A stretch of 35,803 nucleotides of DNA from a virus. Lineage: Duplodnaviria; Caudoviricetes. Each line of letters opens with the position of its first letter. Within the stretch, counting starts at the first letter, position 1. The notes under the pieces were generated by a model. The model was not told where the DNA came from. It worked only from the letters and a program-made list of their open reading frames with translations, and made no database searches. This document shows positions 3,211 through 27,755 of this stretch, one piece after another. The position numbers and the translations under genes were made by a program. The stretch lies in IMG/VR virus record IMGVR_UViG_3300030376_003609, positions 1 through 35,803 of that record, one strand, 5' to 3'.

Positions 3211-3338
3211 TTAACCTTTTCCTGCATTTGTCTTGTCATAATCCCCATAGTGACGTAGAGAGGGGATAGACCTATAATTAGCAGTAATGTAGCGAATGTC
3301 ATAACTGACATAGCTCTAATAATTGCAAATTTTATCAT
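3207..3338 (-). CDS. 43-aa single-TM peptide (not in ORF track)
   Basis: Manual translation [43 protein letters not shown]; fills the gap exactly; start overlaps ATG 3337, stop overlaps TAA 3208-3210. Confidence 0.6.
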
Positions 3339-3561
3339 GTTTCAAAAAATTGCTAATGTTTTGAGTATTGTCTCATTCATAATGGTAACTTCTGTTATTG
3401 GTGGAGGATACTTTGGATATAAATATGTAACATCAGAACAGGTAAAGGCAAAATTAATGAATCAAATACTTGGCGAGGTAAAAGGGCTGTTACCTAATGT
3501 ATTAGATAAAGGTTTACCAAAAACAACTGGCATATCTATACCAACACAACCAAAAAATTAA
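3337..3561 (+). CDS. Small N-terminally anchored membrane protein
   Basis: TM segment IANVLSIVSFIMVTSVIGGGYFGY; Pro-rich tail. Confidence 0.75.
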   Translation: MFQKIANVLSIVSFIMVTSVIGGGYFGYKYVTSEQVKAKLMNQILGEVKGLLPNVLDKGLPKTTGISIPTQPKN

Positions 3562-4188
3562 TTGGAAATACCAGAGATAAGTATTCCAGAAATACATATT
3601 CCTGAGGTTCATATACCTTATACTTTTTTACCTAACTATGAACATTCAAATGTAGAAGTTATAGGTTGTAATTATTATCATCGAGACACAAAAAATACAG
3701 GCAATAGAAATCTATTATTAGATGATCCAAACGGAGTAAGTAGTAACTGTCCGTACCCAAGTTTTTACCCATTGAACTATGTACCAGATCAATTAATTAT
3801 TGTTGAAGAGGCTGCACCAATAAATAAAGAACCTGATAAATTACCAGAAGGAAAACAACCACAAACACAGATTCCAAAAGAAGAAAAAAAAGAAGATGAC
3901 TATAAACCTTGTCCACCTAAAAATGCAGTATTTAGGCAGGGCGATTTTAAAAATGAACTTAGGCTTGAGAGACTGTTAAAATATGAACGTAATATTGATG
4001 GTTCATGTAATGCGGTCTGGGAAAAAGTACCTTTCATCGACCAATATATACCTAGTGCTTCCGTGGTTGTCTCTACTGCTCTTATTGCATCTGTGGCTGC
4101 GACTACTCCTATTATTTTAAATTTAGTAAAACCAATCGTTAAAAATTTAATTAAAAAATTATCAAAAAAGAAAAAAAATTCTAATTAG
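3562..4188 (+). CDS. Membrane protein with IPEI repeats, four Cys and C-terminal TM anchor
   Basis: TTG start directly after upstream TAA; (IPEI)x3; hydrophobic VVVSTALIASVAATTPIILNLV followed by Lys-rich tail. Confidence 0.75.
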   Translation: MEIPEISIPEIHIPEVHIPYTFLPNYEHSNVEVIGCNYYHRDTKNTGNRNLLLDDPNGVSSNCPYPSFYPLNYVPDQLIIVEEAAPINKEPDKLPEGKQPQTQIPKEEKKEDDYKPCPPKNAVFRQGDFKNELRLERLLKYERNIDGSCNAVWEKVPFIDQYIPSASVVVSTALIASVAATTPIILNLVKPIVKNLIKKLSKKKKNSN

Positions 4189-10168: not shown

Positions 10169-10211
10169 TTGAAATACCTTGCGAAAGAATGGCTATCTCA
10201 GCCATGACTTA

Positions 10212-10297: not shown

Positions 10298-10326
10298 TTG
10301 ACATATATATTTAATACATATATATT
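10298..10326 (+). promoter_or_regulatory. Rightward early sigma70 promoter
   Basis: TTGACA (10298-10303), 17-nt spacer, TATATT (10321-10326). Confidence 0.85.
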
Positions 10327-10380
10327 AAGTACATGAGGTCGAGAGATCGGCTGATTATTCAAACTTCGCAAAGGATTCAA

Positions 10381-10770
10381 ATGACTCAAACAGCTTTCCA
10401 AAAAGAACTTTTCAACTATCATGGTGGTTACTTAACTTACACAGGCAAGCACAGCCTTTCAAAAAACTTCGAGGAAGTTTACAAGATTGAAAACTTACAC
10501 CCATCAAATGTTGGCAGACACGTTGATACATTTATTGCAAGATTCAAGTACAACCAAAGACCTTATAAAAAGTGGATTAACTTTATTTGTAAGAATTTCA
10601 CTTGTGAAGAGTGGGTATCATTAGCAGAAACAGGTATGTGTCCAACAGACATTATTGAGTCAAAAGGTTATTTTGATGAAGTGACTGTTAGATGCCTAAG
10701 AGGTAGCGTTAAGACACAAAAGAAAATTATCGCTGAACTACAAAGAAGATTAGACGAGGCAACAAAATAA
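10381..10770 (+). CDS. First gene of rightward early operon, hypothetical
   Basis: ORF 10333..10770; ATG 10333 coincides with the predicted TSS, so ATG 10381 (after TTCAA, as for the starts at 10168 and 10822) is preferred. Confidence 0.7.
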   Translation: MTQTAFQKELFNYHGGYLTYTGKHSLSKNFEEVYKIENLHPSNVGRHVDTFIARFKYNQRPYKKWINFICKNFTCEEWVSLAETGMCPTDIIESKGYFDEVTVRCLRGSVKTQKKIIAELQRRLDEATK

Positions 10771-10799
10771 GGGGAGAACATTCCCCTTTTCTTTTTTTT
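10771..10799 (+). terminator. Rho-independent terminator
   Basis: GGGGAG-AACA-TTCCCC followed by TTTTCTTTTTTTT. Confidence 0.8.
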
Positions 10800-11190: not shown

Positions 11191-11219
11191 GCCCCACCTT
11201 AAGTGGTGGGGTCTTTATT
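11191..11219 (+). terminator. GC-rich hairpin, probable terminator
   Basis: GCCCCACC-TTAAGT-GGTGGGGT followed by CTTTATT. Confidence 0.6.
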
Positions 11220-11688: not shown

Positions 11689-11742
11689 GAGTTAATATCT
11701 AAATGTAAGAGATTGCCCATGCTTCGCTACCTAAAACGATAC

Positions 11743-11907
11743 ATGAACATCTTTCTCAACATAAAAGCTGAAGATGCCCATAGGCTCAGACAGTTTTTGA
11801 AAAAGAACCCATCAACAAAAGGATCTGGAGTTGCAAGAGAGCATTTAGATGCTGGTATTATTTCCAGAGTTGTTTATTCCCTCGAACACGCATTGAATGA
11901 ACTATGA
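11743..11907 (+). CDS. Hypothetical protein
   Basis: ORF 11713..11907; ATG 11743 preferred because a -10 box (11693-11698) and a leader hairpin lie upstream. Confidence 0.6.
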   Translation: MNIFLNIKAEDAHRLRQFLKKNPSTKGSGVAREHLDAGIISRVVYSLEHALNEL

Positions 11908-11908
11908 A

Positions 11909-12019
11909 AGTCGGGTAGCCTGATGACTTAGCCAAGTAAGTCTGAAAGCCATACAATACCTATTTGCAAAGCATAGGGAAGGCAGGGGAGCAAGCGAAGT
12001 GCTTATCCATCACCCGACT
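11909..12019 (+). ncRNA. Candidate multibranch structured RNA
   Basis: Closing stem AGTCGGGT/ACCCGACT; inner stems GACTTA/TAAGTC, GCC/GGC, CCTAT/ATAGG, AGCA/TGCT; GC-rich island filling the gap between convergent genes. Confidence 0.65.
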
Positions 12020-12215
12020 ACTCACACAATGTATATTTTGCTTTTATATCTTCAACAGTTATTTCTGGTTGTTGGATTGTATGCCAGATATGACCACACT
12101 CATAACATTCTCTACGTCTTACAATAACGTGTTTCGAGTTGCGGTCTGATCTTCTTACTTTTTGGTCTGTATAATCCTTACATTTAGGACAAGCTACCCA
12201 TGAAATTCTTTTCAT
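12018..12215 (-). CDS. Stand-alone NrdR-like zinc-ribbon protein
   Basis: CPKC...V..SD.....IVRRRECYECGHIWHT; no ATP-cone. Confidence 0.8.
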   Translation of the reverse strand: MKRISWVACPKCKDYTDQKVRRSDRNSKHVIVRRRECYECGHIWHTIQQPEITVEDIKAKYTLCE

Positions 12216-27373: not shown

Positions 27374-27401
27374 TAAATTAAGAATACTTCGCATTTAATT
27401 T

Positions 27402-27755
27402 ATGGCAGAAAAGAAAACCCTCGACCTTTTAAAGGACGCTTTTGACCTTTCTAAAAGGCGTAAATTTGACGTCAAAGATAATGACGGCAAAACAGTATGT
27501 AGTTTATATTTCAAGGCTATTACAAGGGCAGATAGAGCCAGAGCAACACAAAGGGCTGGCAGTGAGGATCCGTTAGTTGTTTCTACACATATGCTTTGTC
27601 AGTTGGCAGAGAATGAAGATGGTACAAAAGCATTTCACCCTGCTGATTTTGCAAATTTACAAAATGAGTTGCCAGAAAATGTATTAAACGAGATCGAGCT
27701 ATTTTTGTTTGGTGTAAATCAAAATGCAACTATTGATAACGTAAAGGAATTTTAA
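27402..27755 (+). CDS. Tail assembly chaperone (G-like)
   Basis: Between the tube and tape measure genes; AENEDGTKAF. Confidence 0.8.
   Translation: MAEKKTLDLLKDAFDLSKRRKFDVKDNDGKTVCSLYFKAITRADRARATQRAGSEDPLVVSTHMLCQLAENEDGTKAFHPADFANLQNELPENVLNEIELFLFGVNQNATIDNVKEF

Follow-up and report, generated by a model that had tools for sequence, protein, structure and literature searches.

A 111-nt element lying between two convergent genes of a Prochlorococcus-type siphophage genome is a real, conserved structured RNA on the plus strand, and our comparison of its sequence with those of its relatives indicates, with a probability of about 0.65, that it is an antisense RNA acting in trans, which would lower several phage genes through the loop of its P5 hairpin. 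We consider the best reading of the sequences to be a C4- or CI-like control of a small regulon, in preference to the control of one adjacent antirepressor. The evidence that points in this direction consists of the fold itself, its kinship with the sRNA-Xcc1 family (Rfam RF02221), complements of the loop seed at four genes of the window (the whole stretch of 35,803 nucleotides that was analysed), and a joint change of seed and targets with respect to the cultured phage MED4-184 (also catalogued as P-HS2). The siphophage record that makes up the window spans 35.8 kb and is 94% complete; its head and tail genes are lambda-like, and its genes are ordered as in the Prochlorococcus phages MED4-184/P-HS2 and MED4-117.

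A conserved fold between convergent genes

As the initial annotation had described, the element fills its intergenic gap, beginning 1 nt past the stop of the upstream ORF and overlapping by 2 nt the stop of the convergent one, and it is richer in GC than its surroundings (48.6%, against 37.1% for the window). All the stems proposed there were recovered at the same positions, and the comparative structure contains no mispair in the window copy. The features of the RNA, its neighbours and its predicted targets are listed in Table 1.

Table 1. Features of the window discussed in the text.
Feature	Position	Strand	Remarks
Sigma-70-like promoter	10298-10326	+	11/12 consensus matches; consensus match only; start of the rightward unit of small genes whose last element is the RNA
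54-aa gene, phrog_34258	11743-11907	+	Start shifted from 11713 according to homologue leaders; immediately 5' of the RNA
Whole RNA, three-arm sRNA-Xcc1-like fold	11909-12019 (111 nt)	+	1 copy in the genome; scores 91.6 bits with model R1, the window copy being among the sequences of the model
P1	11909-11916 / 12012-12019	+	Outer pair variable, other 7 pairs conserved
P2	11919-11921 / 11985-11987	+	
P3 (extra arm)	Stem 11925-11930 / 11937-11942	+	Arm with flanks GAU / UGAAA, 11922-11947
P4 arm	11948-11983	+	P4a 11948-11950/11981-11983; P4b 11959-11963/11973-11977; AUACAAnA / RAA internal loop
P5 hairpin	11988-12004	+	Stem 11988-11992/12000-12004; loop 11993-11999 holds the predicted seed GCGAAG
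J5/1 return strand	12005-12011	+	Nearly fixed among relatives of the window element
Convergent gene, NrdR-like zinc ribbon	12018-12215	-	Downstream of a RusA-like resolvase
Predicted target 1	10363-10369	+	7-nt seed complement, 11 nt ahead of ATG 10381, which starts the first gene downstream of the promoter-like site
Predicted target 2	11721-11728	+	15 nt before ATG 11743 (54-aa gene); kept as CUUCGY, in MED4-184 CUCUCGC
Predicted target 3	27386-27392	+	9 nt ahead of ATG 27402, whose gene follows that of the major tail protein; in MED4-184 a base here differs together with the seed
Predicted target 4	10181-10186	-	6 pairs including one G.U; 12 nt before ATG 10168, leftward early unit

Three pattern scans of viral contigs gave 247 matches, which a structure filter removing chance matches reduced to 132 distinct elements of 90-193 nt. 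The initial annotation had proposed that homologues be collected and their covariation examined. In 42 sequences of at most 130 nt and <90% identity, 97.0% of the cells are paired and both sides change in a compensatory manner at 18 of the 25 pairs, which none of 500 shuffles reached; the structure was derived from these same sequences, whose relatedness is uncontrolled. When 93 held-out metagenome copies, from a search of 100 of 116 loci, were fitted to the model, 95.8% of cells were paired and 16 of the 25 pairs showed compensatory change, a number attained by 21 of 500 shuffles. Folding energy is modest and does not decide the strand (z -2.04 for the plus and -2.75 for the minus strand), so that the fold is rated above chance because of its covariation and not because of its energy. 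The strand had originally been called from G-U pairs, and this call held up, with 203 G-U against 3 A-C at 20 paired columns of the 132 copies, 105 of the 203 coming from one column and two C-A-rich columns being left out of the count (the outer P1 pair and the third P4a pair; 64/132).

The invariant bases are found in the junctions and the internal loop, outside the seed. An alternative register of P2, in which G11922 pairs with C11983, is possible, both bases being invariant, and the flanks of P3 may form tandem G.A pairs plus a Y.Y or A-U pair. Long insertions in the P4 arm, of up to about 85 extra nt, occur in five loci (L092, L123, L175, L192 and L217). Parts of the element may resemble a k-junction, T-loops, the tRNA acceptor stem and an anti-Shine-Dalgarno sequence.

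A hammerhead core is not conserved

The hammerhead family is characterised by CUGAnGA, GAAA and a cleavage block, and permuted hammerheads retain all core bases (Eckert et al., PMC10085705). The words CUGAUGA (11920-11926) and GAAA (11944-11947) that had drawn attention to the element are present as noted and, together with a three-way junction, recall the classical and permuted forms in the window copy alone. Among the 132 copies CUGAnGA is kept in only 45, and UGAGA is found in 7. The equivalents of G8 and A9 are ordinary, covarying pairs of the P3 stem (G-C in 124 and A-U in 6 of the 132 copies for the former; C-G in 78, A-U in 45 and G-C in 5 for the latter), and the base that follows the third stem is A, not U, in 42 of 42 aligned copies, at variance with the GAAA, A15.1-U16.1 and NUH requirement of the hammerhead. 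The arm that carries both words is dispensable, being absent from 7 natural two-arm loci, and an Rfam search of the window copy returned no hammerhead match at E 10. The initial judgement that this is not a canonical hammerhead thus stands, while the lead towards a ribozyme variant is dropped, permuted types included, since its core words are unconserved and base-paired. A compact RNA with two three-way junctions and unpaired invariant purines, placed between small phage genes, would suit a self-cleaving ribozyme, whether a hammerhead variant or a new class, but the missing cleavage triplet, the pairing of the core positions and the natural loss of the arm make it very improbable.

The element is related to sRNA-Xcc1

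The description of the element as an unassigned ncRNA applies to the window copy, which had no relevant match in the Rfam search proposed in the initial annotation; its homologues, however, match RF02221 with scores below the cut-off, and there are natural intermediates. With the cut-off at 53 bits, the best three-arm copy, from Synechococcus WH7803, scores 25.9 bits, and two-arm forms found in nature reach 36.3 and 33.2 bits (2 of 15 loci) with RF02221 and 46-49 bits with our model R1 (7/7). Conversely, R1 detects 19 of 26 Xcc1-type loci, at 9-21 bits, versus 0 of 14 pattern-only controls, the two classes having been assigned by eye. True sRNA-Xcc1 copies from other phages exceed the Rfam cut-off at 7 of 20 loci. 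The RF02221 consensus corresponds to the fold of the window element minus P3, with the AUACAAnA/RAA loop in common; P3, present in the window, is clearly missing in just 2 of 111 distinct matches of an arm-blind scan. The natural two-arm forms without P3 (L743-L749) bridge the window-type RNA and RF02221. Judged by these comparisons, the element is a diverged three-armed relative of sRNA-Xcc1 and not a member by score.

Both RNAs have a closing stem, an arm with the AUACAAnA/RAA internal loop and a short inner hairpin, an adjoining second hairpin, a strand of 6-7 nt returning to the closing stem, a mobile-element setting and several copies per island. sRNA-Xcc1 is a discrete 88-nt RNA in Xanthomonas (PMC2996969), is present in five tandem copies in Xylella (PMC12189769) and occurs in integron cassettes (bioRxiv 2025.06.18.660453). 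The window element differs from it in its extra arm and second junction and in its score below 53 bits. It also differs in position, since it lies 3' of a gene with its predicted targets upstream or distant, whereas sRNA-Xcc1 has its targets 15-50 nt downstream. No antirepressor or replication operon adjoins the window-type RNAs (0 of 23 downstream ORFs), whose hosts are cyanophages and Synechococcus, while 8 of 17 ORFs downstream of true Xcc1 copies match antirepressor families.

Among 45 distinct true Xcc1-type phage copies, 34 have a downstream complement of J5/1 of at least 7 nt and 40 have one of the P5 loop of at least 6 nt, the loop-5 target overlapping the Shine-Dalgarno sequence. The P4 CI RNA follows the same logic (PMC4825925). 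So does the P1 C4 RNA. In true phage sRNA-Xcc1 (L503, L505, L508, L510, L516, L525, L547 and others) there are two covarying seeds, with targets 13-50 nt downstream by the ribosome site of the antirepressor, an arrangement of which we found no statement in the accessible parts of the literature examined. In contrast, the J5/1 strand of window-type RNAs is nearly fixed and does not behave as a second seed, with no target in the flanks or the window and a complement in 1 of 126 copies.

Seed complements precede phage genes

The predicted targets in the window are small genes without assigned function plus one tail gene, whose leader is 15.4 kb from the RNA. By its position and the nearest named Atlas clusters (0.94; Pfam share 40% and 12%), the gene at 27402 could be tail-assembly-chaperone-like, which we offer as a lead only. 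Outside the RNA, CTTCGC occurs at five sites of the window, at three of which an ATG follows 9-15 nt downstream (background 4.8%, binomial p 0.001; rank 4 of 3512 six-mers), and no loop-5 target was found within 80 nt of the element. Neither the gene at 11743 nor that at 27402 has an obvious purine-rich ribosome site.

The seed and its predicted targets change jointly. In MED4-184 the seed is GCGAG, and CTCGC is found 15 nt before the orthologous upstream gene and 9 nt before the orthologous tail gene, as well as 2 and 9 nt before the first genes of both early units; TTCGC precedes a start there in 0 of 21 places. This joint change comprises two alleles and two orthologous sites. Of 80 relatives whose flank was long enough, 77 have a tail-gene leader that belongs to one of three classes, most of them carrying CTTCGC or TCTCGC. 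From a TCTCGC leader a GCGAG seed was expected, and it was found (one relative). The prediction for L806 failed as made, its tail leader being CTTCGC and its loop-5 seed GCGAG; this still leaves five pairs, one of them G.U, and its P3 loop holds GCGAAG. In L833 (1500-1635) the exact complement of the tail leader lies in the P3 loop and not in the P5 loop; the extra arm may sometimes carry a seed. The third class of leader, CAACCCC (about 9 of 77: L776, L779, L784, L792, L794, L796, L809, L811 and L822), had no matching seed in the scan for it, and a search for copies with the predicted GGGUUG seed returned only a UUGAGG clade and one chance match.

Clade by clade, the complement of the P5 loop is found upstream of the RNA ahead of start codons. 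We compared how often leaders, taken from -25 to +3 of the start, match their own seed and foreign seeds, a test that was framed after the pattern had been seen in the same loci. Own seeds beat foreign ones on upstream leaders (15 seed families, p 0.0014; coding, opposite-strand and downstream controls p 0.24-0.36) and also with 35 held-out seeds (p 0.0026; controls p 0.08-0.59), and significance is lost with coarser families (p 0.13 with 6 families, 0.079 with 5). Other loops did not perform as seeds: p was 0.83 for the P3 loop, and for the P4b loop 0.008 over all seeds but 0.18 per family. Genome-wide, using exact 6-mers with G.U excluded, the result in eight more phages was mixed, the signal being strong in one (8/36, rank 3 of 4063), modest in three and absent in four (exact p 0.054); by the rule of the same script, the best word of MED4-184 differed from the expected one. 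For host copies the coding-window control gave p 0.004 versus 0.02 for the leader window, perhaps through a spurious upstream ATG that shifts the true leader into that window.

Distribution and genomic settings

Among cultured phages, BLAST over the element found MED4-184/P-HS2 and MED4-117 only, a match in S-CAM1 being due to chance. Of ten phage records searched, nine carry one copy each; the tenth gave none, its copy being truncated at the end of the contig. We estimate about 990 metagenome stretches with a pattern match, which makes the element common in the ocean. A pattern scan of GTDB returned 32 stretches, of which three (L313, L315 and L334) are chance matches and the remainder belong to Synechococcus or Cyanobium, plus two differently named bins. 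These, labelled Salipiger and Sansalvadorimonas (L327 and L335), hold Synechococcus-type copies, L335 matching L314 around the element, and are probably mis-binned contigs. With model R1, 14 of the 151 genomes of the host family contained the element, and 3, 24, 10, 7 and 11 copies were found in five Synechococcus genomes chosen for having a match; Synechococcus WH7803 has three, on the minus strand of CT971583 at 850745-850836, 852783-852876 and 857628-857720.

Crude ORF calls show the closest upstream ORF to have the same orientation as the RNA in 115 of 132 phage copies; for the most part it stops only a few bases away. In one AT-rich phage clade (L079, L122, L140 and L250) a -10-like sequence, not a gene, precedes the RNA and a small conserved ORF (phrog_2738) follows it, and there the RNA may have its own promoter. 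Host copies in Synechococcus lie on one strand, clustered in islands and placed after unrelated genes; a terminator-like hairpin is found 3' of 21 of 36 host copies, versus 5 of 400 random places, and of 0 of 129 phage copies. A terminator/antiterminator switch in host copies was rejected, as the terminator arms do not vary with P1 (by eye). The island cassettes (L369-L383, e.g. L371 5169-6500) consist of a conserved upstream palindrome block, a short G-rich hairpin, an A/C-rich leader, a gene, the RNA, an A/C linker and a terminator; their genes are often RTX-repeat or secreted-looking, and several leaders contain 7-9 nt complements of their own loop 5. Two phage-integrase genes were present among 84 island ORFs scanned.

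In the window, terminator-like hairpins (10769-10788 and 11191-11212) lie behind genes 1 and 2 of the rightward unit, and transcription could reach the RNA only by read-through or from further promoters. The RNA runs (X1, X2, X3 and X11) consist of contigs and cover genes of both strands, and their coverage is uninformative on expression. Elsewhere in the window, a plasmid-stability-like gene (phrog_568) and a conserved neighbour, also present in MED4-184, occupy 3337-4188, between the tail-fibre and early regions.

In the literature we found no description of the window-type RNA family, nor of sRNA-Xcc1 in cyanophages. A catalogue of 10,000 viral RNA candidates (PMC10690425) gave no match in three of its six supplement files, and the family may be listed unnamed in its alignments. 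Yfr103, a multi-copy structured RNA of marine Synechococcus and Prochlorococcus of 290-328 nt with its own start site and a homologue in WH7803 (PMC5069720), resembles the present element as a multi-copy structured RNA of picocyanobacteria that include WH7803. The two are set apart by description, the WH7803 copies of the window-type element following ORFs or a short gap.

Discussion

The closest functional parallels are the phage RNAs P4 CI, P1 C4 and Gifsy-1 IsrK, which like the element are small folded RNAs of phage operons with short seeds matching their own transcripts. According to PMC4825925, the P4 CI RNA arises by processing of a primary transcript and has pairing sites both upstream and downstream, and IsrK, a phage RNA of a related kind, acts as an activator. 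The element differs in that it has no Rfam match to these families and in that its one seed matches several separate genes, a tail gene included; termination control and lysogenic immunity are unsupported for it.

A cis-acting 3'-end module of the preceding mRNA, either a processing signal or an exonuclease block, with leader matches due to chance or to fold-back of the same transcript, would account for the co-oriented ORF that closely precedes most phage copies and for the terminator-like hairpins next to host copies that follow unrelated genes; as phage copies have no such hairpin, the RNA could replace one. We nevertheless consider it unlikely, since it leaves unexplained the matched site 15 kb away, the matched unit on the opposite strand and the joint change of seed and targets, and some copies (the L079 group) have no co-oriented gene upstream. 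We give little credence to a real pairing that activates translation, by opening or tagging leaders without a Shine-Dalgarno sequence, or to an RNA that serves chiefly as a decoy, with its invariant loops binding protein. The confinement of invariant bases to regions outside the seed, the two targets lacking a purine-rich ribosome site and the activation by IsrK speak in favour, but sites 2-15 nt before the AUG fall within the ribosome footprint, and the loop-5 target of true Xcc1 copies overlaps the Shine-Dalgarno sequence.

The many same-strand copies of the host islands, their two phage-integrase genes and the presence of sRNA-Xcc1 in integron cassettes also bring to mind a DNA-level joint for cassette shuffling, similar to attC. 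This is very unlikely: nine of the ten phage records searched carry a single copy, the host cassettes possess leaders and terminators of their own, and a branched fold with variable arms differs from attC.

Under antisense control of the regulon, the RNA would form the tail end of the rightward early transcript, from which a stable RNA of ~110 nt closed by P1 would be cut out, in the manner of the P4 CI RNA, and would then pair in trans through 5-8 nt. Sites 2-15 nt before an AUG are inside the ribosome footprint, and pairing there would block ribosome loading and lower translation. Since it is encoded last in its unit, the RNA would accumulate after its targets had first been translated, and its feedback on the two divergent early units and the tail-assembly gene would come with a delay. 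The Synechococcus islands may be domesticated cassettes of gene plus RNA. More tentatively, and as a possibility that we hold to be rather less than even, the element would be a phage antisense scaffold open to re-programming, with a regulon made up of the first genes of both early units and a tail chaperone 15 kb away, its seeds and targets co-rewritten between lineages, with up to 24 differently seeded copies in Synechococcus, some of them perhaps silencing incoming phages with matching leaders.

To our knowledge, marine cyanosiphoviruses have few recognisable regulators. The element provides a candidate RNA regulator with named predicted targets in a cultured pair, MED4-184 on Prochlorococcus MED4, with three copies in Synechococcus WH7803. 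It also brings cyanobacteria and their phages into the range of the sRNA-Xcc1 family, of which little is understood. Our results suggest a shift within this family from a switch of one operon to the control of multiple genes.
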